Assembly: GCA_934162265.1 (NCBI GenBank)
Contig: CAKPHZ010000004.1
Span: 1 to 63,418 of the forward strand
Source of the DNA: an uncultured Bacilli bacterium
GTDB taxonomy: Bacteria; Bacillota_I; Bacilli_A; RF39; UBA660
DNA length: 63,418 nucleotides
Direction: 5' to 3'
Below the pieces are notes generated by a model. The model was not told the origin of the DNA and did no database searches. It saw nothing but the letters and a program-made list of their open reading frames with translations. This document shows, one piece after another, positions 442 to 21,906 of the stretch. The translations under genes were made by a program, and so were the position numbers. The stretch's first letter is position 1. Each line of letters starts with the position of its first letter.

Positions 442-450
442 AATTTCCTC

Positions 451-1777: not shown

Positions 1778-1786
1778 TTTTCTTTT

Positions 1787-4551: not shown

Positions 4552-4776
4552 GTTTATTGCTTTTCCATTTACATATAAAGTATCTCCTTTGTTAGTTGTA
4601 ATTTTACTATTACTTGATTTGAATGTGGCAACGCCTGTATCGGCATCTCCACTCATCGACTGATAAAGAAAGATATTTTTATAAGTAGTCGATTTCCCAT
4701 TTAATTTATTATTTGTATCCTCAATGGTTACGTTATCTAGGGTAACAGAGTTTTTTCCTAAGTATCTTGACTTAAA
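4552..4776 (-). pseudogene. 3' remnant of a beta-helix/adhesin-like protein gene (no start codon)
   Basis: My manual translation gives ...FKSRYLGKNSVTLDNVTIEDTNNKLNGKSTTYKNIFLYQSMSGDADTGVATFKSSNSKITTNKGDTLYVNGKAIN-stop. It is bounded upstream by TAG and has no initiator. It is not in the ORF track. Confidence 0.3.
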
Positions 4777-4797
4777 CTAATAATAATCAATCTATTT

Positions 4798-5373: not shown

Positions 5374-5436
5374 GTATCCTCCAATCTAATTAGATACTGT
5401 CTTCAAAATATTTTTGTTTGCAGTTGTTTGCAGTTG

Positions 5437-6087
5437 TTAACACTGCAAACAAAAATATTTTTTAATTACCCATTGGGGTTTATTTTTTGTTCCTTTATTA
5501 TAAATTAAATCTCTTTCCCTTAAAAAATTTATGATATATCTAGTTTTGTTATTTAATTCGTTTTCATTTTTGGTATCAAATAAAGGATACATATATTTAT
5601 TAATCTCTTGGCGATTTACACCACTATTATTTTTAATATAATTAAGTAATTTAATTTTTAATTCATCCATTTCTTCAATGACTTCTAATGATATATCCTT
5701 CAATTTTTCTGTTAATGGAACTATAACAGTAAAAATCTCATCATCTTTAAAACTTGGAACTTACCCACTATATATTTTATTGTATTTTGTTATAGTTTTT
5801 ATTCCAGAACCTAATTCCTCTGCCAAACCAATTTCTTTAAAAAAATTAGCAATTTTAGGATTTTTAGGATACGGAGAATAATTATTAATATCTATATAAC
5901 CAATATTTCTTGGTCTATTAGCATTCTCAGTCGTTATTGATTCTTTAGTTATAATTAGCCTTGCTGGAACTGGATTGGAGTATTCTCTATGAATTAATAA
6001 ATTCACACATAATTCACGAGCTATTACATCCCTAATATTAATTCTTTGAGTGCCATTCATATAGAATTTTTCATTTAAATGTTTTTT
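5437..6087 (-). pseudogene. remnant of a Schlafen/AlbA_2-HATPase_c_4-type putative DNA-binding regulator (RecG-like annotation family)
   Basis: ORFs 5761..6060 (HREYSNP...NPKIANFFKEIGLAEELGSGIKTI, HATPase_c_4-like) and 5437..5703 (winged-helix-like tail) are in the same frame. They are separated only by an in-frame TAA at 5761..5763. The N-terminal roughly 250 aa (AlbA_2 domain) is absent, and stops lie immediately upstream of 6087. Confidence 0.6.
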
Positions 6088-6105
6088 TTAAATCAATAAT
6101 TACAG

Positions 6106-6711
6106 TTAATCATTTTTATATGTTTCTAAGTCATCAATTATATTTTCAATTTCATGATAAATTTTAAAAATGTTTTTTCTTCTTTTTATTATATTTTTAA
6201 GTCTATAGAATCTTCCTAATATTTTACCATGCTTTTCAATTTCTTGATTTATGTAATATTTAATTGGATAATCTCTCTTCACTGCTCGTACAAAGCATTT
6301 TATTATCCCAGTTCTTTTAATAATTACAGTACCTTTTAATAATGTTATTGGTTTAATATCATAGATTACATTACCTTCAATTAATGCTTTTTTCTTTTTA
6401 CTTTTGATAAAATCTAATATGTCATTATAGCAATTTATAAACTCTTCACCCTCACATATTTTTCCATATTTATTTTTTAAAAAATCTTTTATTTCAGTTA
6501 AATATTTATCCTCAACAACTTTATCAGTTGGCATTTCATATAATCTATCACAATTAATAACAATATAATTATCATCATTAATATATTTCAGTGTACTTGT
6601 TGTTTTACCGGAACCTTTTGTACCAATAACATTTATTACATCATCATTAGTCATTTTCTTTATATAATCTTTTCTATCTCTAAATAAATATAATTTTGAT
6701 TTCTTTGACAT
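6106..6711 (-). CDS. P-loop NTPase/kinase-like protein (zeta-toxin/AAA_18-like size class)
   Basis: Walker A IGTKGSGKTTST near the N-terminus, about 200 aa, no other motif recognised. Confidence 0.55.
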   Translation of the reverse strand: MSKKSKLYLFRDRKDYIKKMTNDDVINVIGTKGSGKTTSTLKYINDDNYIVINCDRLYEMPTDKVVEDKYLTEIKDFLKNKYGKICEGEEFINCYNDILDFIKSKKKKALIEGNVIYDIKPITLLKGTVIIKRTGIIKCFVRAVKRDYPIKYYINQEIEKHGKILGRFYRLKNIIKRRKNIFKIYHEIENIIDDLETYKND

Positions 6712-6742
6712 ATAACCACGTCCTGTAATTATTATATCACAA

Positions 6743-6997
6743 TCATAATGAGTTTTTATCTTGAAGTAGCTTATTTGAATCTTTTTTCTCTCTTTCTAAT
6801 TCTTTTAAACTTTTTTCTGGAGTTGGTAAATTTTCTGGCATTATTCTATGATTTTTTTTAATTGTTTCTCTAATATTTTTACCTATATCATAGTGAGTTT
6901 TATTAGCATTATTTTCTCCTATAATATTATCTTCTCCTAAAGCTGTCTCTGTTTGAGTAATTCTAAATAAATTATCTCCTAATTCTTCACTTCCCAT
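6743..6997 (-). pseudogene. C-terminal fragment of a DNA-damage-inducible protein D (DinD)-like gene
   Basis: MGSEELGDNLFRITQTE...ANKTHYDIGKNIRETIKK...MPENLPTPEKSLKELE matches the conserved DinD tail as I remember it. Only 84 aa remain, and about 100 nt separate it from cadA. Confidence 0.5.
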
Positions 6998-7102
6998 ATT
7001 ATCTCCCGACTTTTTCAGTCAGTAACTAACAAAAACATCATTTTACCAAGTATTTTTTATTTAACTTAGAGAAAAGTACTTATTAAGTATTTTATTCCTA
7101 TA

Positions 7103-9142
7103 TTATTTATATTTTTTCATAATTCTTAATGTATTAATTACCGTTAATAAAGTAACACCAGTATCGGCGAATACTGCTAACCACATATTAGCAAGACCAA
7201 ACACACTAAGGAGTAAGATAATTGCTTTTACCATAAGAGCAAAGATTAAGTTTTCTTGAATAATTTTTTTGGTGTATTTTGAAATATCAATAGCAAGGGG
7301 AATTTTAGTTAAATCATCTTTCATTAAGACAACGTCGCTGGCTTCTATTGCTGAATCACTGCCAACTCCTCCCATAGAAATTCCAATATCAGCTCTTTTT
7401 AAAACAGGGGCATCATTAATTCCATCTCCTACAAAGATAGTGATTTTTCCTTCTTGACTAACTTGTTCGAAATGTTCAAATTTATCTGTTGGAAGCATTT
7501 CTGTATAAATTTCATCTATTGCAAGTTTTTTCCCAATTTCTTCTGATACTTCCTTTTTATCTCCAGTAAACATATAAGTTTTAATCCCGTAGGATTTTAA
7601 TTTTTTGATGACTTCTTCTGAATTTTCTTTAATTCCATCATCAATGGTAACGGACGCTACATGCTCTCCATCAATATTTAAGTGAAGCATTGCTTCTTCT
7701 TTGCAATGACAAAGTTTTTGATTGCCAATAAATATTTTTTTATTATCTAAAGTAAATTCAATTCCTTTTCCGGCATTTTCTTTAAAATCTAAAACATCTT
7801 TATTATCTACTTTTTCCTTTTTTAAGTTTAGAATAGATTTTGCAATTGGGTGGTTAGAGAATGATTCCCCTTTTCTTAAAATATCAACAATTTCATCATA
7901 AGAATACTTATTTTTAAATTTATCCATAATTTCAATTGAAGATACTTTAAATGAACCATTGGTTAGGGTTCCAGTTTTATCAAAGATGATATGACTTACA
8001 TTGCTTAAATTATCTAGATAATTGCTTCCTTTAATTAAAATTCCTTTCTTACTAGCAACACCTATTCCTGTAAAATAAGATAAGGGTACAGAAATAGCGA
8101 TTGCACATGGGCAAGAAATAACTAGAAAGGTAAGGCCTCGATAAATGCCTTCTTTTATAGAAATTTGAAAAATAAGTGGTAATAAAACCATAACTAGTAT
8201 TGCTGTGATAATGACAAATGGCGTATAAATTTTACTAATTTTAGAAACTAATGTTTCTGTTTTGGTTTTTTTATCCGTAGCACTTTCTAGTAAGTTTAGG
8301 ATTTTTGAAACTGTAGAGTTTGAAAACAATGATGTTGCTTTCATCTCAATAATATCCCCTAAGTTAATGCTTCCGGATAGAATTTCAGTTCCTTCTTTAA
8401 TAGATACTTCTTCACTTTCACCTGTTAAGGCTGAGGTATCTAGTTTGCTTTCTCCTTTGGTAACGATTCCATCAACAGGAATTTTTTCTCCTTTCTTGAC
8501 CATTAAAATATCATTTATTTTTACTTCTTCAACGGGAATTTTTTTGATTTCTTCTTTATCTTTTCTATTTACATAATCCTCTTTTATGTTTAATAAGTTT
8601 TTTATTGAATTTCTAGAATTATTGATTGCTTTTTCTTCTAATATTTTTCCAATTGTATATAAAGAAATAACCATCATTCCTTCTAATACTTCTCCAATAC
8701 ATAAAGCACCAATACAAGATATTGTCATTAAGGCATTTTCATTTATTCCATTTCCTTTTCGTAATAGTTTTAAAGCATTTATACTGGTTCGATATAATAA
8801 AATAATATAAGAAACTAGATAAAAAATCCATTTAATTATTTTAGGAAGTGGGATAAAGTAACCAATTAATCCAATAGATAAACCTATGATAAGGCTTGAA
8901 AGATGAAATTCTTTCTTATTATCTTCTTTAGTTTCTGTAATATAAGCTTCTGGCTCGACTTTTTGAATGAATTCATTTAATTCTTCTATACTGTAGTTTT
9001 TTTCTGATTCATAAGAAATTTTACAAGTATTAAAATTTACAATGGCATGATTAAAATTATCATTTTTATTTAATGCTTCTTCTACTTCTCTAGCACAATC
9101 AGCACAGTCTAGGTTGTTGATATGATATTGATATTTACGCAT
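7103..9142 (-). CDS. cadA: heavy-metal (Cd/Zn/Co-type) translocating P1B-type ATPase
   Basis: N-terminal HMA domain with CADC, the transmembrane CPC motif (SCPCAIAISVP), phosphorylation site DKTGTLT and hinge GDGINDAP. It overlaps cadC by 8 nt. Confidence 0.9.
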   Translation of the reverse strand: MRKYQYHINNLDCADCAREVEEALNKNDNFNHAIVNFNTCKISYESEKNYSIEELNEFIQKVEPEAYITETKEDNKKEFHLSSLIIGLSIGLIGYFIPLPKIIKWIFYLVSYIILLYRTSINALKLLRKGNGINENALMTISCIGALCIGEVLEGMMVISLYTIGKILEEKAINNSRNSIKNLLNIKEDYVNRKDKEEIKKIPVEEVKINDILMVKKGEKIPVDGIVTKGESKLDTSALTGESEEVSIKEGTEILSGSINLGDIIEMKATSLFSNSTVSKILNLLESATDKKTKTETLVSKISKIYTPFVIITAILVMVLLPLIFQISIKEGIYRGLTFLVISCPCAIAISVPLSYFTGIGVASKKGILIKGSNYLDNLSNVSHIIFDKTGTLTNGSFKVSSIEIMDKFKNKYSYDEIVDILRKGESFSNHPIAKSILNLKKEKVDNKDVLDFKENAGKGIEFTLDNKKIFIGNQKLCHCKEEAMLHLNIDGEHVASVTIDDGIKENSEEVIKKLKSYGIKTYMFTGDKKEVSEEIGKKLAIDEIYTEMLPTDKFEHFEQVSQEGKITIFVGDGINDAPVLKRADIGISMGGVGSDSAIEASDVVLMKDDLTKIPLAIDISKYTKKIIQENLIFALMVKAIILLLSVFGLANMWLAVFADTGVTLLTVINTLRIMKKYK

Positions 9143-9515
9143 AATCTTCTCCTTTCAATTTATGGTTAATATGTTCTAGTCCAATTTCATATAAACGACT
9201 GATATGTTCATCATCTAGGGTATAATAGACTTCCTTACCATTTCTTCTAAATCGTACAATTCCTGCTTCTCTTAAGATGGCTAATTGATGAGAGATGGAT
9301 GACTTTGTCATATTTAGAACATTAGCAATATCACAAACACACATTTCATGATGATCTAATATCCATAAAATTTTTGTTCTTGTACTATCCCCTAATATTT
9401 TGAAAAGCGTTGTTAAATTTTCTAATTCTTTTTCTTTGGGTTTATTTTTTAAAGCAATATTAACAGCATTTTGATGGATGATATTACAGTCACACATGAA
9501 TTCTTTTTTTTCCAT
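9135..9515 (-). CDS. cadC: ArsR/SmtB-family metal-sensing repressor
   Basis: HEMCVCDIANVLNMTKSSISHQLAILREAGIVRFRRNGKEVYYTL (wHTH with a CVC metal site) plus N-terminal Cys residues (MCDC). An SD AGGAGGAAAAA precedes the ATG. Confidence 0.85.
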   Translation of the reverse strand: MEKKEFMCDCNIIHQNAVNIALKNKPKEKELENLTTLFKILGDSTRTKILWILDHHEMCVCDIANVLNMTKSSISHQLAILREAGIVRFRRNGKEVYYTLDDEHISRLYEIGLEHINHKLKGEDYA

Positions 9516-9541
9516 TTTTTCCTCCTTACTTAACTATATTC

Positions 9542-9571
9542 ATTATAGTTGAATGGTTATTCAATTGTCAA
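9542..9571 (-). promoter_or_regulatory. sigma-A-type promoter with an embedded ArsR/SmtB-type operator for cadC-cadA
   Basis: The minus strand reads TTGACA-N18-TATAAT. The spacer contains the dyad TTGAAT-AACC-ATTCAA (+ strand 9549..9564), i.e. a TGAA-N6-TTCA core as in SmtB/CadC operators. Confidence 0.55.
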
Positions 9572-9612
9572 GAGTTAAATGAAGCAAATATTCTTCTTCA
9601 GTATTTTAAGCA

Positions 9613-9641
9613 ACAAAAAAAGTAGATTATTTCATCTACTT
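9613..9641 (-). terminator. intrinsic terminator ending the six-gene operon 9649..13792
   Basis: Minus-strand hairpin AAGTAGAT-GAAATA-ATCTACTT followed by a T7 run, 8 nt after the stop of 9649..10056. Confidence 0.6.
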
Positions 9642-9648
9642 AAAGTGC

Positions 9649-10056
9649 TTATTTTTCTTCATTATTTAGTATAAAGTTTATTTTTTCATTTAATACAATA
9701 CTAAACTCTTCTTCATCATCCATTGTATTACAGTAAAAATCTATGAGATAAAACTCATTGTCTATCCGTTCTAAAAAACATTTATATGTTCCATAAATTA
9801 GAGAAATCCATCCTTTACTATCATTATATATAATATCTGTTACATACTTAGATATATCTTTTTTATCATTTATTTTTAATTCTTTAATCCACTTTTTATC
9901 ATACACTAGTTCTAATCCTAATTCAAAATCATCTAATATAAAAGTAATATATGGTGCTTTACCCGATCTTTTTTTACCATTTTGTTTTACTTGATAATCT
10001 CCAAAAGATACTTGATATGAAAGTTTACTATATATCTTGTTATTTAATTTAATCAT
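9649..10056 (-). CDS. hypothetical protein (135 aa), last gene of the six-gene operon
   Basis: ORF only; no motif recognised. There is a 19-nt gap to the upstream gene. Confidence 0.5.
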   Translation of the reverse strand: MIKLNNKIYSKLSYQVSFGDYQVKQNGKKRSGKAPYITFILDDFELGLELVYDKKWIKELKINDKKDISKYVTDIIYNDSKGWISLIYGTYKCFLERIDNEFYLIDFYCNTMDDEEEFSIVLNEKINFILNNEEK

Positions 10057-10075
10057 ATTGATTATATCTCCTTTA

Positions 10076-10366
10076 TTATTTTAAATTTTTCATGATTTTG
10101 TAATAATCTAAATTATTAAGTGAAATACTTGCTATTTTCTTTAAAAATTGATAATTATATGTATGATATAAGTCGTAATATATATTTGTTATTTCAATAA
10201 AATCTTTTTCAGTTAATTCTAATTTTATATTATTTTCTATACATTTATTTAATATTTCTAATATTTTTTTATTTATTTCTTTAGTTGAATGTACATTCAG
10301 TGTTTTTCCTTCAAAATGATTGGCTTTTTTTTCTATTTCTTTTAAAGTCATTTTAGTTTTCTCCAA
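10076..10366 (-). CDS. hypothetical small helical protein (96 aa)
   Basis: ORF only. There is an 8-nt gap to the upstream HExxH gene. Confidence 0.5.
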   Translation of the reverse strand: MEKTKMTLKEIEKKANHFEGKTLNVHSTKEINKKILEILNKCIENNIKLELTEKDFIEITNIYYDLYHTYNYQFLKKIASISLNNLDYYKIMKNLK

Positions 10367-10374
10367 TCTTTATT

Positions 10375-11529
10375 TTAAATTTGTTTTTTTCTACAATAGT
10401 TTTTGCTTACTTTATGTTTTTTTGAATAGCTACCAATTTCTTTACTTAACTCTAATAATACTTGATCTGGTAAATTAATGTTAGAAAAATCAGGTTTTTT
10501 ATCTTTAGGTAAGGTATTTTTAACAATGATCTTTAGGCTATTTAATCCTATATTATAATCTAGACAAATTTGTTTATATATTCCATATGAAATAATGCCA
10601 GATTCTAATTCAAGTAAGTTTCTTATTATATTCATATCTAAAATATCCATGACATCTTGTACTTTGTATTCTTTTATGAAATCTATTTCTTTTTTGTTGC
10701 AAATCTTTTCTCTAATTAATCCTCTTATTGATTTTGCAAGAGATTGTAAGTAATTATCTTTCATCATTCTTAATTTTTGTACTTCACCATATTTAACGCC
10801 AATACTTTCTAGATAATCTATAAATAAATAATCTATTGCATATGTTGGGATTTCATGAAATCCATAATATGTTTCATTTGGAATTTTTGGCTTAAAATAA
10901 AAATCAATACAATGCATTATTTCATGGTTAAAGGCTTGAAAATCAATAATTAGGTTATTTCTTTTTATGGTACAAAAAGCCTTTCCATTAATATAATCGC
11001 AAAATGTTATTCCAGCGGCATTACTATATAATCTTGAATATGTATTTGAAAAATTGATATTTTCTTTATCGTTAAAAGTTTTTAATGCCATTTGATAGAT
11101 ATCATTATCTTTTAAATTTTGATAAAATTGTTTTGATATATTTAATAATGTTGCATTACTTGATGGGAAAAAATCAAAATTAAAGTTTTCATTTGGCGTT
11201 ATTGCTGGTTCTGTATTAATAACATTTTCCACAATATCTAATAAAAATTCTAGATAAGTTTTATCCATATAATAATCAGTATTGGTAATTATTTTTTCAA
11301 AATTACCTGTATATTTAGCACTTGGTCTGTTTAAAGAAAATTTTCCTTTAGATAAAGTATCTAGAATATTATACATTTTAGTATTTTTGATAGTTCCACA
11401 GTTATCAATCATACTTATATATGAACCTAGAGTTATTTCTAATATTTCTTTTCTACTTTTATCAGTGCAAGTTTTAAGTTCATCTAATATTTGTTTTTTT
11501 TGGGTTTTTAGTTTTTGTATATTCCACAT
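10375..11529 (-). CDS. putative zinc metallopeptidase (single HExxH motif), family not recognised
   Basis: FQAFNHEIMHCIDFY contains HEIMH, in a 384-aa soluble protein. Confidence 0.5.
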   Translation of the reverse strand: MWNIQKLKTQKKQILDELKTCTDKSRKEILEITLGSYISMIDNCGTIKNTKMYNILDTLSKGKFSLNRPSAKYTGNFEKIITNTDYYMDKTYLEFLLDIVENVINTEPAITPNENFNFDFFPSSNATLLNISKQFYQNLKDNDIYQMALKTFNDKENINFSNTYSRLYSNAAGITFCDYINGKAFCTIKRNNLIIDFQAFNHEIMHCIDFYFKPKIPNETYYGFHEIPTYAIDYLFIDYLESIGVKYGEVQKLRMMKDNYLQSLAKSIRGLIREKICNKKEIDFIKEYKVQDVMDILDMNIIRNLLELESGIISYGIYKQICLDYNIGLNSLKIIVKNTLPKDKKPDFSNINLPDQVLLELSKEIGSYSKKHKVSKNYCRKKQI

Positions 11530-11556
11530 ATAAATTTCTCCATTTTGTATGATATT

Positions 11557-12003
11557 TTATTTTTTATTAATAACTTTGTAATATTTTTTGTATTCTTGAT
11601 ATTTAACTTTGATAATATCTATGGGAACTAATTGATGATAGCATTTATACTGATAAGTATTATTGTCTTTTATCATTGAATTATCTTTTTTAAATACATA
11701 AATATATCCAATTATATCATCAAATACATTTACATTTTCCATTATCATTAATGGGTAGGTATTATTATTAGATATTTCAAAATTCCAATCTAGTTCCGAA
11801 CTTAATTTTTTTATTGTATCTTTGAAAGCATATGGTGTAGATTTTAAAAAGCTAGGAAATAAAAAAATAGCTGTAGCAATATTATTTTTATTGTGATTTG
11901 AATCATTAGTTAATTTTGGTTCTAAGATACTTAATTTTTTTGGACTACCATGAAATAAATATTTAGGGTTATTTATATCTTGATTTAAATATTCTTCTAT
12001 CAT
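11557..12003 (-). CDS. hypothetical protein (148 aa) with an N-terminal YLFHGSP motif
   Basis: ORF only. The H-G-S start is reminiscent of the H-Y-E ADP-ribosyltransferase-like/DUF3990-like folds, but I cannot support that from sequence alone. Confidence 0.45.
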   Translation of the reverse strand: MIEEYLNQDINNPKYLFHGSPKKLSILEPKLTNDSNHNKNNIATAIFLFPSFLKSTPYAFKDTIKKLSSELDWNFEISNNNTYPLMIMENVNVFDDIIGYIYVFKKDNSMIKDNNTYQYKCYHQLVPIDIIKVKYQEYKKYYKVINKK

Positions 12004-12004
12004 T

Positions 12005-13228
12005 TTATTTCCTTTTACTGTTAAAATTTTTTTCTTGATTATTTTTGTATGGTATAATTTCTTTGGTAATATCTATTGAATTTTTACTAAATATATTTTT
12101 TAAATATCCTTGGTTATTAACTCCTTTTTCTGGTGGAAGAAATTCATATATTCTAATCCAACTTATTACTTCATCATTCATTGGCAATCCTAAACTTTTA
12201 TTGTATTCTATATGAGTTTTCATTTGTGCTAAAATAGCTTCTTCTTCGTTTTTGAATTCATGTATTCCTTTATTTTGGTTATCAGCATGTTCAAACCAAT
12301 ACCATTTATCATTGTTCTTATTCTTGTAAATTAAATATGTATGACATCCGTATGGATATTTGGTATTATGTTCAAAAAAGATAAATATTGTTTTTATTTT
12401 ATAATTATTTTGTTTAAACCAAGTTCTTTCTAATTCTGTTTGATCCCAACAATGACCAATACCTATTGTTGCTATTTCTCTTCCCTCTCTAAATTGCCAA
12501 TCATGATTACATACTTTTTGAAAATCATCTAAATTCCAATCATAATATTTTCCTGTTTTATCCAAAACACCATACTTGATATTTTTTTCCATAAATTCAA
12601 ATAATTCTTCTGGAGTTTTTACTGTTTCAAATAAAGTTTTCCTTTTATACATTTCTTTTGTTAAATAGTACTGATAATTTTCAACTGTTTCATCTAAATA
12701 TGTATATTCTACTAATTTGGTTTCATTTTTTCTTATGAAGCCACATTTTTCCATAAGCATCCATGAGGATGGATTTTTTACTGCTGCTGATGTTTTTATC
12801 TCTTTAATTTCACATTCGTTAAACATATAATCAATCATCTTTTTTGCTGCTTCTGTAGCATATCCCATTCCTTGATATTTTGGATCAATAAACCATCCGA
12901 CACCTCTAATACTGGGGTCATTTATTTGATTATCCTCATCATGGGCTTCATGGCAAGTTATTCTTCCTATACATTGATTAGTATCTTTTAAATAGATGCT
13001 CCATTTAAAAGTATCTTTATCATTTGCATGTTTCATTTCTTCAATGTAGTATTGTTCCTGTGTTTCCCATATTTTTAATTTTTCTCTAAATTTTCTAGGA
13101 ACAGTTAAATAATACTTATTGATTTCAGGATGCATCAAAAGTTGCCATAAGTAGTATTGTTCTTTCATTGTTTGAGGTCTTAATTCTAATCTTTTTGTTC
13201 TCAGTAATTTACTTCCTAAATATTTCAT
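12005..13228 (-). CDS. GNAT N-acetyltransferase fused to a C-terminal Cys/His/acidic papain- or transglutaminase-like module
   Basis: N-terminal half: RLELRPQT... and GNAT motif A KYQGMGYATEAAKKMIDYMF. C-terminal half: GIGHCWDQTELERTWF ... GCHTYLIY ... WYWFEHAD (ordered C, H, E/D). Confidence 0.65.
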   Translation of the reverse strand: MKYLGSKLLRTKRLELRPQTMKEQYYLWQLLMHPEINKYYLTVPRKFREKLKIWETQEQYYIEEMKHANDKDTFKWSIYLKDTNQCIGRITCHEAHDEDNQINDPSIRGVGWFIDPKYQGMGYATEAAKKMIDYMFNECEIKEIKTSAAVKNPSSWMLMEKCGFIRKNETKLVEYTYLDETVENYQYYLTKEMYKRKTLFETVKTPEELFEFMEKNIKYGVLDKTGKYYDWNLDDFQKVCNHDWQFREGREIATIGIGHCWDQTELERTWFKQNNYKIKTIFIFFEHNTKYPYGCHTYLIYKNKNNDKWYWFEHADNQNKGIHEFKNEEEAILAQMKTHIEYNKSLGLPMNDEVISWIRIYEFLPPEKGVNNQGYLKNIFSKNSIDITKEIIPYKNNQEKNFNSKRK

Positions 13229-13249
13229 TTTCTCATTCCTTTCTGATTA

Positions 13250-13792
13250 TTAATCTAATGTTTTTTTTACTTTAACAAACTCTATTTGTTTATTAAACTT
13301 TGTACAATAAAACCTATCAACTATTTTAAATCCTATAGATAAAAAAGCTTGATAAGTAGTTGTTCTAGTGATTTCAAATTCATCATATAATTCTTTTATC
13401 TTTTTTTCTTTTGCTTTATTAAATAACAAGTTCATACTTTCTTTAAAATAACCTTTTCCTCTATACTTTGATTGAATTACTATTCCCATGTTATAAATAT
13501 CCTTTTCTAAATAATAATATATTTCACCTATAGGTTCTTTACCATTATTTTCATATATGTAAGCAAAGTATTTGTCTTTAGGTTCTTTAATCCATTTTAT
13601 ATACCAACTTATCATTTCTTCTTTGGTCTTAGTAATAGTACCGGTTTTCTTATTGTAACCTTTTAAATTGATATCATACCCAGCATTATATGACATTGTT
13701 TCTGCGTCCATCATCCATTTTTGACGATAATATAATTCATTGATTGTTGGCTGTTCTAGGTATAGTTTTGGCCGATTTAAATCTTTCTTCAT
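13250..13792 (-). CDS. GNAT-family N-acetyltransferase
   Basis: Motif A IQSKYRGKGYFKESMNLLF, 180 aa. It is the first gene of the operon, with a 112-nt untranslated gap upstream. Confidence 0.7.
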   Translation of the reverse strand: MKKDLNRPKLYLEQPTINELYYRQKWMMDAETMSYNAGYDINLKGYNKKTGTITKTKEEMISWYIKWIKEPKDKYFAYIYENNGKEPIGEIYYYLEKDIYNMGIVIQSKYRGKGYFKESMNLLFNKAKEKKIKELYDEFEITRTTTYQAFLSIGFKIVDRFYCTKFNKQIEFVKVKKTLD

Positions 13793-13904
13793 TTTTTACT
13801 CCTTTTGAAAAATTTTTATATTATTTTTTTTTGATTAACTTCTTTTACTATTTCTATTACTTTGATTTTTCCATTTACTAATACTTCAATAATTGGTTCT
13901 TTTC

Positions 13905-14378
13905 CTAATTGATTTTTTTACTGCTCCAATATCTTTTAGCTAATTTTAAATTGTTTTCTTGATTGATTGTTCCTTCAAAGCAATTCCAAGAGTCTCCAAT
14001 ATATATTTGTCCATCTACTTCAACTTTTACAATTGCATATGTTGGTCTTTTTAAATCAATGAATATTTTGTACCATTTTTCTGCTTCTTCTAAAGTTTGA
14101 GAAACATATAATGATGCAAGGCTTGATGGGTATTTTGGATAATTTTTCTTTCTTACTTCTTCCAAAGCTAATTCTCTTAATGCTACTTTGAGATGATGAT
14201 CGAGGTTAATATTTTTGTATTGATTAGGATTTTGGTAAATATCATTTACTTTGTCTTTTAATTTATGTACTCTATTATATACATTGTTATGATGTGTATC
14301 ATCAAATATTAGTTCTTGCCCTAATTCTAATGTTTTTTCAGTAACAACATGGTAAAAAATTTGTTTCATTGTATTCAC
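13905..14378 (-). CDS. hypothetical protein (157 aa)
   Basis: ORF only; no family assigned. Confidence 0.45.
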   Translation of the reverse strand: MNTMKQIFYHVVTEKTLELGQELIFDDTHHNNVYNRVHKLKDKVNDIYQNPNQYKNINLDHHLKVALRELALEEVRKKNYPKYPSSLASLYVSQTLEEAEKWYKIFIDLKRPTYAIVKVEVDGQIYIGDSWNCFEGTINQENNLKLAKRYWSSKKIN

Positions 14379-14427
14379 CTTTTAATTTGATAGTATTCTT
14401 ATTTATATTATATAAAGTTTATTTTTC

Positions 14428-14973
14428 CTACCAATTTCTATCTTTATTAAATTGTAATTTTTTTTGCCTTATTAATTTTTTGGCATTTTCATCTTCTTTT
14501 TTATCAATATAATATAGGGAAGTATATTTTTCTTCAAATAATTTCATTTGATCTCTGTTATATGGTTCAAAATATAGGAATTCTATGATATTATCACTAT
14601 TAATAAATCTTCTTGGTAAGCGATATTCTATTCTATAGTCTATATAGTTTCCTACACCAATGTATTGATTTAAAATATTTTCATCAATGTTACATACCAT
14701 AATATAATTTTCTTCATCAGTGTTATGGCAAAATTCTAAGACTGCTTGTAAATATTTAGCTAAAAAAATATATTGTTGGTAAAAGCAGTTTTCAGATATA
14801 TATCTTTTAAAAATATGAAGAGGAGCATCATACAATTCTTTTGGTACATAATCAAAAGTATTTTCTCCTCCAGCACGAGCTTCTTTATATGGTATTTTTT
14901 CATAAATAATTGGCTCATTATTTTTTAATTTTTCTACTTGTTCTTTAGTAAATCCCCCGTGAAATACTATCAT
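14428..14973 (-). CDS. hypothetical protein (about 181 aa)
   Basis: ACGGAGAA precedes ATG 14973 (MIVFHGG...). The longer start at 15033 has no SD. Confidence 0.45.
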   Translation of the reverse strand: MIVFHGGFTKEQVEKLKNNEPIIYEKIPYKEARAGGENTFDYVPKELYDAPLHIFKRYISENCFYQQYIFLAKYLQAVLEFCHNTDEENYIMVCNIDENILNQYIGVGNYIDYRIEYRLPRRFINSDNIIEFLYFEPYNRDQMKLFEEKYTSLYYIDKKEDENAKKLIRQKKLQFNKDRNW

Positions 14974-15067
14974 CTTTATTCTCCGTTCTTTAATGTTGAT
15001 TTTATGATAAAAAAGACTACTAATAAAATACAATGACTATGTACTATTTTTAGTAGTCTCAACAAAT

Positions 15068-15742
15068 CTATTTTATTTTTCTTTTTCGTTTCATGTCATA
15101 AATCATATTATCAAATTCTGCTATACTTTGAATTTCATATCTCATTTCTTGTAATCCTTCTTTAAAAGAACTATCACCAAGTTGTTTTACTTTTTCTAAA
15201 GATTTAATAAGTTCCTCTCGATGAGGTAAAGTTTCTTCAATATATATTGTTTTAAGTTTATCATTCACTACAAGTGTGTTGTTTTCTACTTGTGATATAA
15301 CCAAATTTTCTTTTGAATATTTTTTTATCTTGTCTTGAAAATCTTTTAATGAGTCAACTTGGCAAAAATTTAAATTATATTCTTTAGGTACCACCCAAAA
15401 TATTTTACCTGATAATAATTCTTGTATACGATTATCGTTTAATTTTTGAAATATTAATGGTTTGAATCCATCCTCTTCTAGTAAGAAATCTTTAGTACTC
15501 AATACATTTATGTTTCTTCCACATATTACATTTATAAAGTTACCATGTGTATTATAATTGTATTCAGGCGTTAAAGAATATATATTGATTTGATTGGGCA
15601 TTAATCCAAATAACATTCCCTCTTCAAGTTCACAAATATCTGATATATCATATTTCAATAAAAAATCTTGGTATTCTTTATTAATATCAAAGCATATATT
15701 AACTTCTTCCATTATATATGTTTTATCTTTTTTTTCAGCCAT
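15068..15742 (-). CDS. hypothetical protein (about 224 aa)
   Basis: GGAGG lies 7 nt upstream of ATG 15742 (MAEKKDK...). No motif recognised. Confidence 0.45.
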   Translation of the reverse strand: MAEKKDKTYIMEEVNICFDINKEYQDFLLKYDISDICELEEGMLFGLMPNQINIYSLTPEYNYNTHGNFINVICGRNINVLSTKDFLLEEDGFKPLIFQKLNDNRIQELLSGKIFWVVPKEYNLNFCQVDSLKDFQDKIKKYSKENLVISQVENNTLVVNDKLKTIYIEETLPHREELIKSLEKVKQLGDSSFKEGLQEMRYEIQSIAEFDNMIYDMKRKRKIK

Positions 15743-15897
15743 AACAAACCTCCAATTCACTTGTAGTATAATACTGAGAGTGAGAAAAATCAAGTATTTT
15801 TTACAAAAAGTTAATTTTTGTTTCTTTTTTAAATTAAAATTTAATGGATATTGGTCTTGATCAGTATTTTAATTCAAAAAAAAGCAAACCACTAAGT

Positions 15898-16542
15898 TTA
15901 CTTTACTTTCTTTAATTCATATACTTCATCTACCATTTCACAGACTTCTTTGGAGTGTGTTACAATAATGATGCATTTGTTTTCTTCATGAGCTAGTTTT
16001 TTTAAGATATCTAATATTTCTTTTTCGGTTTCTTTATCTAAGTTGCCTGTTGGTTCATCGGCGATAATCATTTTTGGATAGTAAGATAAGCTTCTGGCGA
16101 TAGCTACTCTTTGTTGTTCTCCTCCTGATAGTTTTAATATTTTTCTTGTTGCGTAACTTTCTTTTAGTCCTACTTGTTTCATTAATTCTAGGGCTCTTTT
16201 CTTTTTATTTTCTATTTTTATGCCACTGATATCCATAGAAAGAATAATGTTTTCTATTGTACTCATAAAGGGAAGTAGATTATAACTTTGGAAAACTATA
16301 CCAATTTCATGATTTCTATAGGTATCTAAATTCATCTGGTTTAAATCTTTATGATTAAAAATAATTCGGCCTTCACTACATCTTTCTAATCCACTGATTA
16401 GTGATAAAAGTGTTGTTTTTCCTGATCCACTTCTTCCTTTTATTGCATAAATTTTTCCCTGCTCAACTTCATAGTTGATATTTTTTATGGAAAATACTTC
16501 ATTAGAATTAAACTTTAAAAATATTTTTTGGTTTGAAATCAA
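15898..16542 (-). CDS. ABC transporter ATP-binding protein (MacB/BceA/FtsE-like), orphan: no permease gene nearby
   Basis: Walker A GRSGSGKTT, signature LSGGEQQRVAIARS, Walker B IIADEPTGNLD, H-loop VTHS. It has a TTG start with no obvious SD. Confidence 0.8.
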   Translation of the reverse strand: MISNQKIFLKFNSNEVFSIKNINYEVEQGKIYAIKGRSGSGKTTLLSLISGLERCSEGRIIFNHKDLNQMNLDTYRNHEIGIVFQSYNLLPFMSTIENIILSMDISGIKIENKKKRALELMKQVGLKESYATRKILKLSGGEQQRVAIARSLSYYPKMIIADEPTGNLDKETEKEILDILKKLAHEENKCIIIVTHSKEVCEMVDEVYELKKVK

Positions 16543-16618
16543 TAAAATTTCTAGGGTATATAAATATAAAATAATATGTTATAATTTAATTAATCAATGG
16601 AAAGAGAGTTGGTAAAAA

Positions 16619-17407
16619 ATGAGAAAGATTTTTCTAAAACATTATAATGTTTGTATTTATTGTTATTATGGTTTTATATTGTTAGTTTTAGATCAATTTG
16701 TTACTTATAATTTGACTGATATTTTTCTTTTTATTCCTTTTTTTCTTTCAAATATTTTTCTAACAATTTGGATTAATTATCCTATTATTAATTATAATAA
16801 ACTTTTTTGTAAAACATTGAATTCTGCTCCTTTGTTAGATCAACTTTCTTTTGAACTTAAAAATTGTAGTAATTTAAAAAGAAAAGAAAGTTTAAAATAT
16901 ATATTTTATTCAAAAAAGTGTGTTTTAGATTTAAATGAGGATTATTTAAAAAAATTAGAATTGATTAATATAAATTTACTCGATAAAAATACTATATTAA
17001 ATTTAAATATTGACTTAGTTTATTTTTATCTTTTAAATAATAATTTGGATTTAGCAAATAAAAGGTTAATTAATATTAATATGGTGGATAGGACTACTAA
17101 AAAGTTAGATTTTATAAAAAAAGTTTATGCTTTATATAGTGATGATTTAGATAACATTGAATCCTGGCTATTGAATGAATTAAAAAGTCAAAATAAAGAC
17201 AATATTCTTCATTGTGCAAATTTGAATTTTTTATTAGGAATTTATTATTATAAAGTAAATGATAGAAAAAAAGCATTAAGTTATTTTCAATTTGTAATAA
17301 ATAATGCAAAGAATATTTATATCTATAAATTATCTATTAATTATAAAGAAAAAATCAAATCAAATATTAACAAAAAAAGTAATCAATCAATTAAAGGAGA
17401 TTGCTAA
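16619..17407 (+). CDS. hypothetical protein with an N-terminal membrane segment and a helical-repeat (TPR-like) C-terminal part
   Basis: 262-aa ORF, extremely AT-rich. It lies opposite in orientation between the ABC ATPase gene and the kinase remnant. Whether it is really coding is uncertain. Confidence 0.35.
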   Translation: MRKIFLKHYNVCIYCYYGFILLVLDQFVTYNLTDIFLFIPFFLSNIFLTIWINYPIINYNKLFCKTLNSAPLLDQLSFELKNCSNLKRKESLKYIFYSKKCVLDLNEDYLKKLELININLLDKNTILNLNIDLVYFYLLNNNLDLANKRLININMVDRTTKKLDFIKKVYALYSDDLDNIESWLLNELKSQNKDNILHCANLNFLLGIYYYKVNDRKKALSYFQFVINNAKNIYIYKLSINYKEKIKSNINKKSNQSIKGDC

Positions 17408-17497
17408 GATTGCTAATGTTTCTGTTGATGAAATAAAGAAGATAGGAAAATCAAATGATGACTAATCCTATCTCTTTTTATTTGGAATTTTTCCATA

Positions 17498-18138
17498 TTA
17501 CTTTAAAAGTTGTATATCCTTCTTTAGAGGCGCAGAAATTTCTCCTTTATGGTTTATCACAATATTTTTAGCTATTGCAAGACCTAATCCATAGTGGTTA
17601 TGATTTCCATTTCTTGATTTATCAGAACGATAAAATCTTTCAAAAATATTTTTTTCTTCGCCTTTTTTATTGGTAATCCTTTATTCTTTACTTCAAGGAT
17701 AATTGTCTTATTATTTTTTTCTAATAGTACTATAATTTCTCCTTCTTTTTTGCTGTGTTCTACAGCATTGTCTAGTAGAATATGAATTAATTTTTCTATC
17801 TGTTCTTTTATCATAAGTAAATAAATATCTTTTTCGATAGTAGTGGTTAATTTAATTTTTTTATCAAACATCATACTTTCAAAGGTTAAAATATTTTTCT
17901 CTAGAATAGTGGATAAATTTTCCTTGGTATAGACTTCTTTGGTAATTTTATCTGTTTTTGCGAGTTCTAGCATCTCTAAGACTAGCTTTGTCATTCGATT
18001 TGCTTCTTCTTGAATATTTTTTACCCATCTATCTTCTTTTTTGATGAAATAAGCATCTGTACTTGCTAAAATTACGGAAAGTGGTGTCTTTAATTCATGT
18101 GAGGCATCTTCAATAATTAATATTTTCATCTTTATCAC
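17498..18138 (-). pseudogene. histidine kinase remnant: 5'-truncated and frameshifted
   Basis: It begins at the H-box (IIEDASHELKTPLS) with no TM/HAMP region. The N-box LLDNAVEHS is present. After VKNKG the frame breaks in an A7/T7 run (17649..17655). The +1 frame continues NIFERFYRSDKSRNGNHNHYGLGLAIAKNIVINHKGEISAPLKKDIQLLK-stop (G1/G2 boxes). Confidence 0.75.
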
Positions 18139-18325
18139 CTTTTTAATATAAATCAGTATTCTTAAATTAATCTTAAAAGAATAATTGATAAAATTATAAC
18201 AAAAAAGAGATTTTTTTCATCTTTTGAAAATACTTATAGAGATTTGTTTTTAATATTATTTTATTTGTGGTATTTTTTCTTTTATTTTTAATACTATTAA
18301 TTATGGTAAAGGAGATAAGTAATTA

Positions 18326-18481
18326 ATGTCTAAAAAAGATATTTGTTATATTTATTCAGAAGAGTTTATTTTTTCTTCAAATAATTTATCTGAAGAAAAA
18401 ATAAGAGAATTATTTAATCAAAAGATGTATTCTATAATTTTGAAAATAGAGGATTATAATGCTTTAGAGGATGATGAGTAA
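18326..18481 (+). CDS. small acidic-tailed protein (51 aa) translationally coupled to the recombinase gene
   Basis: AAAGGAGATAAG SD lies 6 nt upstream of ATG 18326. It encodes MSKKDICYIYSEEFIFSSNNLSEEKIRELFNQKMYSIILKIEDYNALEDDE, and its stop at 18479..18481 overlaps the recombinase start region (18471). It is below the size cutoff of the ORF track. Confidence 0.35.
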   Translation: MSKKDICYIYSEEFIFSSNNLSEEKIRELFNQKMYSIILKIEDYNALEDDE

Positions 18482-20576
18482 AAAAATGAATGCGATACAA
18501 AAAAATAGTAAAAAGAGATTAAGGGTAGTTTTATATTTACGATTATCTAAAGAAGATTTGTATAAATTAAGTCCATCTGAGAAATCTCAAAGTATTAAAA
18601 ATCAAGAGATAATACTTAGAACTTATGCATTAGAAAATGGTTGGAATATTGTTGGGGTTTTTGATGATGAAGATTATTCTGGTTCTGATCGAGAAAGGCC
18701 TAATTTTAATAAAATGATTAATGAATGTAAAGAAGGGAATGTTGATATTGTTTTAGTAAAAACACAGGCTAGATTTGCTCGTGATATTGGACTGGTGAAT
18801 GAATATGTTCATAATAAGTTCAGACAATGGAATGTTAGATTTGTTACTTATATTGAAAAAATTGATAATACTAAAGATGAAACTAAGAAGACAAGTCAGA
18901 TTATTGCGATGAAAGATGAATGGCTTCTTGAAGATACTTCTAAAAATATTAGGGAAACTTTAAAATCAAAAAGAGCAAAGGGACAATTTACGGGAAGTTT
19001 TGCCCCTTATGGTTATATAAAAGATAGGGAAAATAAAAATCATTTATTGATTGATCCGATAGCATCTTTAAATATAATTAGGATATTTGAAGAATATAAT
19101 ATGGGATATGGAATGGATAAAATTGCTAATAGATTATCTAGAGATAATATCTTAAGTCCTTTAGAGTATAAGATATTTAATGGTAGTAAAATTAAAATTC
19201 CTATAAAAAGAAAAGATTATGTTAATTATATTAATAAAGCTGGTACTTATGTTATTGATATTAATTATACAAATAATCAGAAGAAAATATTAAAAAATAT
19301 AACTACTATTGAGGTTATTTCTAATGAGTTATTATTTAATAATACTTTTAATATAAAACTTTTAAAAAAGAAAAATAGTAAAATTAAAATTTATTATTCA
19401 ATAAAGGATTTAAATAAGTTAGATATTATTATTGATAATGGTAAATATTTATTTAAAAATAAACCAAATTTTAATCATGATAATTGTTGGAAGGAATTTA
19501 AATTAAATGATATACTGCCTAAAGATGTTACTTGTATTGCTACTTATATAACGGAATTAGATAGAATGCATAATATTTTTTATAGTTTTGAAATTACATT
19601 AAAAGAGAATAGAAATCATTTAAAATATTATTATTATATATTTGCTTATGCTGATTATTATAATACTCATTTAAATTATCATATTAAAGTTAGAAATAAA
19701 TACAATTGGAGTGCTACTACTATTAGAAAAATATTATTTGATGAGGTATATATTGGAAATTTGGTACAGTTTAAGACTACTACTGTCAGTTATAAAAATC
19801 ATACTCTTATTTATAATAATAGTGATGAACAAATAAGAGTAGAAAATACTCATGAGGCTATTATTAATTTAAAGTTATGGAATGCAGTTCAAATAAAATT
19901 ATCTCATAATAAAAGATGTTGTAAAGATGGAAAAGTTCATTTATTATCTAATAAGGTTTACTGTCAATGCTGTCAAAAAATATTTTATAAATGTGGAAAG
20001 AGCATAGATGGGATGGGATATTTATGTTGTAAAGATAAGTTAACTAGTTGGTCTAATTGTGATAATAAAAAATGGATTAATGAAAGGTTTTTACACGAAT
20101 ATATTTTACAAAAGTTTAATATTTTATTAGATAAGTATTATTCTATAAATAAACAGATTAAATATGATAATTCTTTTGTTGAAAATAATTTATTTCAAGA
20201 AAAAATTAAAGTTTTACTTAAGGAAAAGAAAGAGATTAGTTTTGATTTGGATAATAAAAAAGGGTATTTTAAAACTTTATATTTAGATTTTAAAAATGGT
20301 ATTCTAAATAAAAAACAATACTTTTATTTAAAAGAAGAAGATGAGGTAGAAATAAAACGATTGGAACAAAGGTTAAAAATTATTGAGAGAAATTTGAAAA
20401 GTATTTATAAAGAAAAAAATGAGAGAAAAAATAGATATTTATTATTTAATAAATATAAAGAAATCAATACTTTAAATAGTTTTATTGTAGATAATTTTAT
20501 TGATAAGATTATTATAGGGAAATATGATTTAATAACGAATAGTCGTAATATTAAAATTATTTGGAATTTTTTATAA
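18471..20576 (+). CDS. large serine recombinase (resolvase catalytic domain + recombinase domain + zinc ribbon + coiled coil)
   Basis: VVLYLRLSKED...SIKNQ (catalytic Ser region), VDIVLVKTQARFARD, FAPYGYIKD, WSATTIRKILFDEVYIGN, Cys cluster CQCCQKIFYKCGK...CCKDK...C, and a K/E-rich coiled-coil tail. It carries an unusual insert of about 170 aa. Confidence 0.85.
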   Translation: MMSKKMNAIQKNSKKRLRVVLYLRLSKEDLYKLSPSEKSQSIKNQEIILRTYALENGWNIVGVFDDEDYSGSDRERPNFNKMINECKEGNVDIVLVKTQARFARDIGLVNEYVHNKFRQWNVRFVTYIEKIDNTKDETKKTSQIIAMKDEWLLEDTSKNIRETLKSKRAKGQFTGSFAPYGYIKDRENKNHLLIDPIASLNIIRIFEEYNMGYGMDKIANRLSRDNILSPLEYKIFNGSKIKIPIKRKDYVNYINKAGTYVIDINYTNNQKKILKNITTIEVISNELLFNNTFNIKLLKKKNSKIKIYYSIKDLNKLDIIIDNGKYLFKNKPNFNHDNCWKEFKLNDILPKDVTCIATYITELDRMHNIFYSFEITLKENRNHLKYYYYIFAYADYYNTHLNYHIKVRNKYNWSATTIRKILFDEVYIGNLVQFKTTTVSYKNHTLIYNNSDEQIRVENTHEAIINLKLWNAVQIKLSHNKRCCKDGKVHLLSNKVYCQCCQKIFYKCGKSIDGMGYLCCKDKLTSWSNCDNKKWINERFLHEYILQKFNILLDKYYSINKQIKYDNSFVENNLFQEKIKVLLKEKKEISFDLDNKKGYFKTLYLDFKNGILNKKQYFYLKEEDEVEIKRLEQRLKIIERNLKSIYKEKNERKNRYLLFNKYKEINTLNSFIVDNFIDKIIIGKYDLITNSRNIKIIWNFL

Positions 20577-20599
20577 TATATTTCAAGAAAACTTTATAT

Positions 20600-20803
20600 G
20601 TGGCTACTGGTCCAACTGGACCTACTGGACCTCAGGGAGCTGCTGGTCCTCAAGGAACTGCAGGAGCTACACCAACTTTGACAATTGGAACAGTAACAAC
20701 AGGAAATCCCGGTACACAGGCTGCTGCTACAATAACAGGAACAGAACCAAATTTCATTTTAAATTTAACTATTCCTCAGGGACCTACTGGACCTACAGGT
20801 TAA
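20600..20803 (+). pseudogene. collagen-like (G-X-Y repeat) protein fragment lacking its own start/SD
   Basis: (V)ATGPTGPTGPQGAAGPQGTAGATPTLTIGTVTTGNPGTQAAATITGTEPNFILNLTIPQGPTGPTG-stop. It is visibly GC-richer than its surroundings. The only in-frame ATG (20561) is inside the recombinase gene, and GTG 20600 has no SD. Confidence 0.55.
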
Positions 20804-20808
20804 TTTAG

Positions 20809-21906
20809 ATGAACAAATATAAAGTATGCGTTTATGCAATTTGTAAAAATGAGGAAAAGTTTGTTACTAAATGGGTAAATTCAATGAAAGAGGCTGATAA
20901 AATATTTGTATTAGATACTGGATCAGAAGATAATTCTGTTTCTTTACTGAAAGAATTAGGCGTTATTGTAAAGAAAAAAATTATCAAACCATGGAGGTTT
21001 GATGTTGCTAGAAATATTTCTTTAAATATGGTAGATAAAGATACTGATATTTGTGTTTGTACTGATTTAGACGAAATATTATTACCTGGCTGGCGGGAAA
21101 ATTTAGAGAAAAATTGGGAAAAAGAATTAAATTGTCTTTTTTATCGATATAATTGGAGTTTAGATAAAAATGATGTTCCTAAAGTTAGTTTCTATTTAGG
21201 AAACATTCATGATAGGGTTCATTATCAATGGACTCATCCTGTTCATGAAGTTTTATCTTATTTAGGAAACGATGAAGAAAAAATAAAATATACTGATGAT
21301 ATTACTTTAAATCATTATCCAGATGTTTTTAAAAGTAGAAGTAGTTATCTTCCTTTGTTAGAATTATCCGTTAAAGAAGATAGTACTGATGATCGAAATA
21401 TGCATTATCTCGGAAGAGAATATATGTATTATGGTAAATATCAAGAATGTATTGATACATTAATTCATCATTTATCAATGAAAAAAGCAACTTGGAAAGA
21501 TGAAAGATGTGCTTCTATGCGATTTATTGGAAGATGTTATAAATTCTTAAAAAGATATGATGAAGCTAAAATGTGGTATGAAAAGGCAATTAAAGAAGCG
21601 CCTTATTTAAGAGATGCTTACGTGGAATTAGCATTACTTTATTATGAACTACATGATTATGGAAATATGATTAAGTATTGTCATCAAGCTCTTAGGATAA
21701 AAGAAAAGAAGGATACTTATATTAATGAAGTTTTTAGTTGGGATTATACGATTTATGATTTACTTTCTATAGGATTTTTTGAAATAGAAGATTTTGAAAA
21801 AGCACTCTCTTATTCTAAGATGGCTGTTGATATGGACCCTGATAATCAAAGATTAATTGATAATTATCAAACTATTTTGGATACAGTAAACCGATATACA
21901 GATTAA
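20809..21906 (+). CDS. family-2 glycosyltransferase with a C-terminal TPR-like domain
   Basis: VCVYAICKNEEKFVTKWVNSMKEADKIFVLDTGSEDNS and a DxD-like TDLDE motif. The C-terminal part has helical repeats (YEKAIKEAPYLRDAYVELALLYYE...). It starts 5 nt after the collagen-like stop. Confidence 0.7.
   Translation: MNKYKVCVYAICKNEEKFVTKWVNSMKEADKIFVLDTGSEDNSVSLLKELGVIVKKKIIKPWRFDVARNISLNMVDKDTDICVCTDLDEILLPGWRENLEKNWEKELNCLFYRYNWSLDKNDVPKVSFYLGNIHDRVHYQWTHPVHEVLSYLGNDEEKIKYTDDITLNHYPDVFKSRSSYLPLLELSVKEDSTDDRNMHYLGREYMYYGKYQECIDTLIHHLSMKKATWKDERCASMRFIGRCYKFLKRYDEAKMWYEKAIKEAPYLRDAYVELALLYYELHDYGNMIKYCHQALRIKEKKDTYINEVFSWDYTIYDLLSIGFFEIEDFEKALSYSKMAVDMDPDNQRLIDNYQTILDTVNRYTD

Follow-up and report, generated by a model that had tools for sequence, protein, structure and literature searches.

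Two serine-recombinase elements divide a collagen-like gene into three pieces in an uncultured gut Bacilli bacterium

The window analysed here, a 63,418-nt stretch of contig C4 in the assembly of an uncultured Bacilli bacterium (source assembly G000; 1.25 Mb, 49 contigs, 27% GC, completeness 88.8%), carries a fragment of a collagen-like gene beside the gene of a large serine recombinase. Two different recombinase elements interrupt the collagen-like gene, with one cut each, and leave it in three pieces. The recombinase in the window and its element are hereafter rec2 and E2, and those on contig C3 are rec1 and E1. Very probably, the window holds the right attachment site (attR2) of E2 inside this three-way split gene. 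The wider statement, which adds that E1 and E2 are gene-intervening elements whose excision is linked to sporulation, has in our judgement an even chance of being right. For comparison we used the relatives G002, G003, G011, G012, G014, G017, G018, and G019, all uncultured gut Bacilli.

G-X-Y runs were sought in all six frames of the whole assembly and occur at three loci only, C3:30692-31073, C3:41911-42301, and window 20612-20803. The 5' piece (C3:30692-31073) encodes MGCFDKAIKK...CCIGPTGPTG...GPTGPT and then runs into non-collagen sequence, where the convergent rec1 gene (C3:31104-33149) abuts it. The middle piece (C3:41911-42301) has neither start nor end and contains six 63-bp units (GPTGPTGPQGEAGAQGVAGAI). 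In the window, the G-X-Y stretch begins about 25 nt past the rec2 stop, has a GC content of 0.475 against 0.14-0.27 around it, and shows no ATG or Shine-Dalgarno sequence, as an earlier note on this DNA (hereafter the original prediction) had described. When C3:30692-31073, C3:41924-42301, and window 20628-20806 are joined, they give one open 311-codon frame, and the G-X-Y register is continuous over both joints. The original prediction had offered two readings, an element that splits a collagen-like gene whose 5' half lies beyond its far end, or a deletion scar. The search of the assembly found the complementary 5' half on C3, together with the middle piece; these pieces, their in-frame joining, and the intact gene in two congeners bear out the first reading and refute the second.

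The joints coincide with direct repeats. A 13-bp repeat, ACTGGACCTACTG, stands at C3:31061 and C3:41911, the E1 junctions, and a 16-bp repeat, CCAACTGGACCTACTG, marks those of E2, one copy on C3 and one in the window (Table 1). Both repeats fall within Gly-Pro-Thr coding DNA. Beyond each core repeat, the element-side sequences are mutually inverted, and the attachment sites rebuilt for the excised elements (attP1 and attP2) are imperfect palindromes. In a computational test of dyad score against 3000 shuffles, attP2 scored 10 (shuffle mean 2.8 ± 1.4) and attP1 16-17 (4.4 ± 1.7), and in neither case did any of the 3000 shuffles equal the score. The symmetry centre of attP2 is CCA/AC/TGG at window 20615-20616, and the element-side (P) arm of attR2 is identical in G011 and G017. 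The predicted rejoined site attB2 contains ...ATTGGGCCAACTGGACCTACTGGACCTCAGGGAGC..., and the predicted attP2 contains ...ATGTGGCTACTGGTCCAACTGGACCTACTGCTACATTATT....

Two other placements of the crossover were considered and rejected. A crossover at the GC dinucleotide beside the conserved arms would give GPT-AT-GPT joints; it was discarded because the intact orthologues and the E1-free allele of G011 keep a continuous G-X-Y register, and because the symmetry centre sits within the 13- and 16-bp repeats. The 15-nt repeats GGACCTACTGGACCT, proposed in the original prediction, are present, but they are merely GPTGP coding sequence and are not attachment sites; the relevant repeat is CCAACTGGACCTACTG. 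The GTG at 20600, which had been taken as a possible start of the fragment, belongs to the element arm (codons GTG GCT ACT GGT, 20600-20611) and lies outside the gene.

Relatives provide both empty and occupied sites. An intact collagen-like gene is found in G012 (263 residues) and G003 (230 residues), with a matching N-terminus, 21-residue units, and the C-terminal sequence TP.LTIGT.TTGAPG...NLTIPQGPTGP. It sits uninterrupted between the same neighbours, namely the holin-like gene that flanks C3:30565 in the source genome, and the GT2-TPR glycosyltransferase, MutY, and enolase genes that flank window 20809. In G011, the 5' part and the repeats form one piece up to the left attachment site of E2 (attL2), and E2 is therefore present there without E1. 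G014 shows the right end of E1, three repeat units, and attL2. The rec2 gene and the 3' fragment recur in G011, G014, and G017 at 97-98% identity. Judged from sequence, E1 and E2 are independent insertions. A protein of 88 residues with three transmembrane segments, encoded divergently from the collagen-like gene at C3:30293-30565 (L013:2294-2566, minus strand), is kept in all relatives and weakly matches Phage_holin_5_2 (E 6e-5).

Assemblies are often broken or misjoined at collagen repeats, and the relatives do have contigs that end inside the repeats, which would fit the view that the junctions are assembly chimeras at collagen repeats, or that the fragment is a recombinase-mediated deletion scar. 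However, the same attL2 and attR2 junctions lie inside contigs of four independent metagenome-assembled genomes from different studies, and an assembly chimera is therefore excluded; moreover, all parts of the gene are present and in frame. We regard this explanation, in either form, as highly improbable.

The original prediction correctly placed the recombinase gene. Its product of 701 residues contains the Resolvase domain PF00239 (E 3.3e-22, residues 19-172) and the Recombinase domain PF07508 (E 6.4e-17); the match to Zn_ribbon_recom is weak (E 0.0054, below the cut-off), with visible Cys clusters, and that to DUF4368 is also weak. The nearest solved structure is the catalytic domain of TnpX (E 4e-14), and the catalytic Ser lies within LYLRLSKED, aligned to LYERLSRDD of TnpX (2mhc). 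The two recombinases rec1 and rec2 are 52-54% identical. The rec2 gene is uninterrupted in four species, and its pN/pS of 0.06-0.21 indicates that purifying selection acts on rec2 across them. A lineage-specific insert of about 170 residues (residues ~236-408, window 19176-19694) splits the recombinase domain of rec2; it is rich in N, K, I, and Y and poorly conserved between rec1 and rec2. Three more serine-recombinase-like genes in the assembly, 25-35% identical to rec1 and rec2, are located at C18:22510-23877, C15:28495-29904, and C13:36876-37511.

Homology to the recombinase-free arrangement of G012 stops at 18263, and the recombinase cassette therefore spans 18264-20627 (2.36 kb), which corresponds to the entire 2.3-3.1-kb mini-elements of the same recombinase family. 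The cassette of 2.46 kb in the original prediction is thus recognisable in this slightly shorter form, but the element as a whole measures at least 45 kb. The small open reading frame (ORF) of 51 codons that overlaps the rec2 start belongs to a small-protein family kept upstream of these recombinases (..Y.YSEEF....N.T.EELK.IFNKKYF.YIKR.E) and has no Pfam match. Its product is likely a recombination directionality factor. Cassettes of the rec1 type carry a conserved TCATAAGTTA box and a hairpin, and the rec2 cassette is without both. Ahead of their small ORF, the rec1-type cassettes (L013 minus strand, L034, L046, L054, and L055) have a conserved box GTTATCAAATTTAATTTTATCTCATAAGTTA, then an imperfect palindrome AACTATTAATTATAGTT and a T-run. 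Together these may form a promoter with an operator or attenuator; the box has been lost from the rec2 cassette.

Collagen repeats are a recurrent neighbour of this recombinase family. We surveyed 80 related recombinase loci from genome contigs and counted G-X-Y repeats (at least four triplets) downstream of those close full-length relatives with enough downstream flank (n = 41). The repeats begin 22-72 nt past the stop codon in 27 of these 41, in either orientation, and several further homologues lie right at the margin of a collagen region. Such repeats are absent downstream of all 29 out-group loci, which are shorter recombinases from Clostridia. The mini-elements hold only the small ORF, which is kept across the family, and the recombinase gene. 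These recombinases appear to form a clade specialised for collagen repeats in uncultured gut Bacilli, and a literature search found no paper describing collagen-repeat targeting by serine recombinases.

E1 measures 10.85 kb and lies wholly on C3 (C3:31074-41923), with its own recombinase rec1. E2 has its left end at C3:42302 and its right end at window 20611, with rec2 at the right end. It runs from C3:42302-66856 over a gap into window 1-20611, which gives at least 24,555 + 20,611 = 45.2 kb. The order C3(+) then C4(+), and with it this size, is supported by collinearity with contig C3 of G003, where the homologue of C3:44001-61356 runs into the homologue of window 1244-3788. The E2 cargo in the window is of an accessory type (oleate hydratase of the MCRA family, a P-type metal ATPase with an ArsR-like regulator, GNAT acetyltransferases, an ABC ATPase, and unknowns), and the cargo overall includes Tag glycosylase, GNATs, regulators, ABC transporters, the P-type ATPase, and oleate hydratase. 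Ten large ORFs, a subset of the cargo, were scanned against Pfam and gave MCRA, GNAT, AAA, or no match; mobilisation, conjugation, or resistance genes were not among them, and no phage genes were seen in the cargo ORFs tested. A search of 17400-22000 against a phage database returned no match. No tyrosine recombinase was found in the E2 cargo, where rec2 is the sole recombinase.

Further observations concern the island within E2. Its DNA (C3:44001-64000 and window 601-10100) is 96-98% identical between G000 and G003, while core proteins of the two genomes are 69-87% identical (SpoIIP 69%, GT2-TPR 83%, PgsA 87%), which indicates a recent interspecies exchange of the island. At its 3' end, the Tag glycosylase gene extends by its final ~12 codons into the left arm of attL2 (C3:42302-42371; L013:14303-14372), and over these 70 nt the identity to G003 falls from about 98% to about 65%. 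An att-like left arm could not be demonstrated in G003, where high identity reaches only to within about 70 nt of the core. In G000, G011, and G014 alike, the assembly breaks near one point of the island, at about window 1-1400, which suggests a repeat or a strain-variable segment.

We infer that excision still occurs and that it is timed to sporulation. In the proposed mechanism, rec2 would recombine attL2 on C3 with attR2 in the window within the 16-bp core, rec1 would act likewise at the 13-bp core, and the product of the 51-codon ORF would probably serve as the directionality factor. Each element would exit as a circle, and the 311-codon gene would be rebuilt without a scar. The lineage would thus keep E1 and E2 as gene-intervening elements comparable to skin, SPbeta, and gin, and excision in the sporulating mother cell would allow the surface protein to be made there.

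Several observations weigh against this proposal. E1 is present in some genomes and absent from others, even among close species, like an ordinary mobile element. One and the same arm, for example of the rec1 type, adjoins many different collagen flanks, in either orientation, and the recombinase family is therefore mobile. No convincing sporulation-type promoter was seen upstream of rec2, where the native region is apparently replaced 62 nt before the small ORF. Spo0A is absent from the source assembly, which is 88.8% complete, and two metagenome scans, with attP2 and with the rejoined attB2, gave no match, so that no excised circle or rejoined junction was seen. The adjacency of C3 and C4 comes from the G003 collinearity only, with no contig-end overlap joining them, and in G003 and G012 the E2 cargo is found at other chromosomal locations, where no recombinase accompanies it.

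The variable presence of E1, the promiscuous arms, and the lack of a visible sporulation promoter upstream of rec2 would all suit ordinary selfish integrative elements like Tn4451 or Tn5397, as would the closeness of rec2 to TnpX of Tn4451 and its weak DUF4368 match. The collagen repeats would then be a tolerated landing site, the gene would be inactivated, and excision, if any, would serve transfer of the element. On the other hand, no mobilisation or conjugation genes are found in the ten cargo proteins tested, and none in the mini-elements. E2 occupies one site in four species, yet rec2 is under purifying selection, and both the gene pieces and the GT2-TPR gene are intact, which is unexpected for a gene dead over 4-8% synonymous divergence. 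All three pieces are open although this is the sole collagen-like gene in the assembly. We consider selfish elements of this kind a serious possibility, well short of probable.

The recombinase-free cargo leads to another explanation. In G003, the cargo (96-98% identity) adjoins spoIIP; in G012 (77-92% identity), the tag gene stands beside a DUF1848 gene, and the response regulator-histidine kinase (RR-HK) pair beside polA-side genes. E2 may therefore be a mini-element whose arms were separated, and it is maybe no longer excisable. Stated fully, E2 would be an immobilised relic, a 2.4-kb mini-element torn by rearrangement with about 45 kb between its left arm and its cassette, and the collagen-like gene would be permanently broken in the clade. 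Consistent with this, the tag gene lies beside spoIIP or DUF1848 in those genomes, homology to their arrangements comes as close as 62 nt to the small ORF, on its upstream side, and about 20-70 nt to the left arm, and the cargo shows decay, such as the RR-HK pseudogene described below. However, both arms and both copies of the core are intact and still symmetric. Neither rec2 nor the small ORF is disrupted, and both are under purifying selection. In skin and SPbeta, large serine recombinases recombine sites that lie 48-134 kb from each other, and the distance alone is therefore no bar to excision of E2. We think a relic unlikely. As to its origin, E2 may be a mini-element with about 45 kb inserted, or one whose arms were parted by rearrangement; gene order in the genus, judged by the genes around tag and around the RR-HK pair in G003, G012, and G002, is too heavily rearranged to decide between the two.

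Returning to the gene-intervening reading, the neighbourhood and the host are consistent with a surface protein of a spore former. The GT2-TPR glycosyltransferase that the original prediction had noted after the fragment is confirmed, and its gene always comes after a collagen-like gene, as seen in G012, G003, G002, G019, and G018. Its pN/pS of 0.06-0.13 points to strong purifying selection, also where the collagen-like gene is split. The TPR part of this protein has a sub-threshold match (E 4.5e-5) to TPR_P4H. This is the peptide-substrate-binding domain of prolyl 4-hydroxylase, which binds collagen-type proline-rich peptides, and the match therefore hints that GT2-TPR may recognise the collagen-like substrate. 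The collagen-like region is GPT-rich, and PF01391 is found in the intact orthologues; BclA_C gave no match in the G003 or G012 orthologues, and a weak one (E 0.0046) in the more distant G019 gene. Matches of the collagen-like protein in the PDB span the triple helix only. The earlier label of a BclA-type protein thus fits the GPT repeats and the adjoining glycosyltransferase gene; it does not fit the C-terminal domain.

SpoIVA and SpoIIP are encoded in the source genome, and 16 of 18 congeners have Spo0A (Spo0A_C). Six relatives share a -10-like CATAnnnTA in front of the collagen-like gene, always at one distance from its ribosome-binding site. It resembles the -10 element of mother-cell sigma factors, and in DNA so AT-rich this match is only suggestive. 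A more far-reaching idea, which we hold to be rather unlikely, is that the sole spore-surface collagen gene exists in the germ line as three pieces, which two serine recombinases, each using its own core within the one repeat array, would join in the terminal mother cell and nowhere else. Each 63-bp unit would recreate a core-like site, the array would be a multi-copy landing pad, and the use of different units for recombination could alter how long the collagen stalk is, and hence the spore's surface nap, between sporulations.

To the left of rec2, the minus-strand kinase ORF (17584..18138) starts at its H-box, as the original prediction had stated: HisKA matches from profile position 5, and the HATPase_c match spans only positions 4-58 of 111. 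Comparison with the intact pair on contig C9 of G012 (response regulator of 228 residues, histidine kinase of 406 residues) corrects one detail, since the first 8 codons (MKILIIED) are those of the response regulator. In the window, an internal deletion of 1.25 kb between two copies of the ATTGAAGA microhomology has left the promoter and these codons of the regulator joined to the kinase H-box. Frameshifts near 17668 and ~17532, both in A-runs, complete the pseudogene. The kinase 5' end had been proposed as a cassette border; we rejected it, as the internal deletion and frameshifts explain the missing 5' end. The regulator promoter region (Table 1) is the final stretch homologous to the G012 arrangement.

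Table 1 Coordinates of features in the window
Feature	Position	Strand	Basis or remark
Right-hand part of E2 cargo	1..18263	.	ORF lists, Pfam, G003 collinearity
Two-component-system pseudogene	17484..18138	-	blastn/tblastn against intact RR and HK of G012:C9
Promoter/5' region of response-regulator gene	18107..18263	-	78% identity to L024:8529-8690
rec2 cassette, 2.36 kb: small ORF, recombinase, attP-type arm, and crossover core	18264..20627	+	
51-aa small ORF overlapping rec2 start	18326..18481	+	ORF list, family conservation
rec2, large serine recombinase, 701 aa	18471..20576	+	Pfam
Element-side (P) arm of attR2	20577..20611	+	Dyad symmetry with arm from C3:42302 on in rebuilt attP2
16-bp crossover core CCAACTGGACCTACTG	20612..20627	.	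Second copy C3:42286-42301
3' segment of collagen-like gene, (G)PQGAAGPQGTAGATPTLTIGTVTTGNPGTQAAATITGTEPNFILNLTIPQGPTGPTG then stop	20628..20803	+	Open in all four E2-carrying species
Second copy of 15-nt repeat GGACCTACTGGACCT (first 20618-20632)	20780..20794	+	GPTGP coding sequence, no att site
GT2-TPR glycosyltransferase	20809..21906	+	Pfam; downstream partner of collagen-like gene

The collagen-like protein shares with the BclA-type exosporium proteins the GPT-rich G-X-Y repeats, an adjoining glycosyltransferase gene, and a probably spore-forming host. It differs in its C-terminal part, which has just ~45 residues (TPTLTIGTVTTG...NLTIPQGPTGPTG) and no BclA_C or C1q-like domain, and in a Cys-rich N-terminus (MGCFDKA..CK..YICC) unlike the BclA targeting motif. 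Serine-recombinase gene-intervening elements are known for few sporulation genes, including sigK, spsM, gerE, spoVFB, and yabG. If excision of E1 and E2 is developmental, a surface glycoprotein joins the genes rebuilt during sporulation, and the device persists in genomes of about 1.3 Mb.

Among mobile elements, Tn4451/Tn4453 (TnpX) and Tn5397 (TndX) resemble E1 and E2 in that TnpX is the nearest catalytic domain, the recombinase gene is at the element end, and several related insertion sites are used. These transposons carry resistance genes and mobilisation or conjugation genes, and a short target suffices for them. In contrast, the arms of E1 and E2 extend into ~13-16 bp of collagen-coding identity, and no transfer genes occur in the cargo tested.

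SPbeta in spsM (SprA/SprB) and skin in sigK (SpoIVCA) of Bacillus subtilis, of 48-134 kb (PMC4191935, PMC5499854), are likewise large, are bordered by serine-recombinase att sites, and carry the recombinase gene terminally. Each interrupts a mother-cell gene for the spore envelope or surface that is rejoined by excision, and E2 likewise splits a gene for a predicted surface protein. In contrast to them, no phage genes were seen in the tested E2 cargo, two recombinases would act on one gene, and the host is an uncultured gut Bacilli lineage with a genome of 1.2-1.5 Mb, in which developmental control of E2 is putative.

In function, the element that comes closest is gin, which interrupts gerE of Bacillus cereus ATCC 10987 and has the GirC recombinase and the 42-residue GirX (PMC5595907). 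It too is a non-phage element in a small gene, with a large serine recombinase, a tiny motif-less partner, and a short shared core (9 bp in gin, 13 and 16 bp in E1 and E2) at which recombination rebuilds the gene in gin and would do so in E1 and E2, and the mini-elements of the rec2 family are as simply built as gin. E2 differs in that its copy encloses at least 45 kb, that its excision and the timing of it are predicted, and that its small ORF shows no established kinship with GirX. The target also differs, being collagen triple-helix repeat DNA and not a unique site; one gene can therefore be hit several times, and be occupied twice, by recombinases with different arms. The clade offers compact pairs of recombinase and partner, with defined att sites of ~50 bp, which may be of use as tools for genome engineering.

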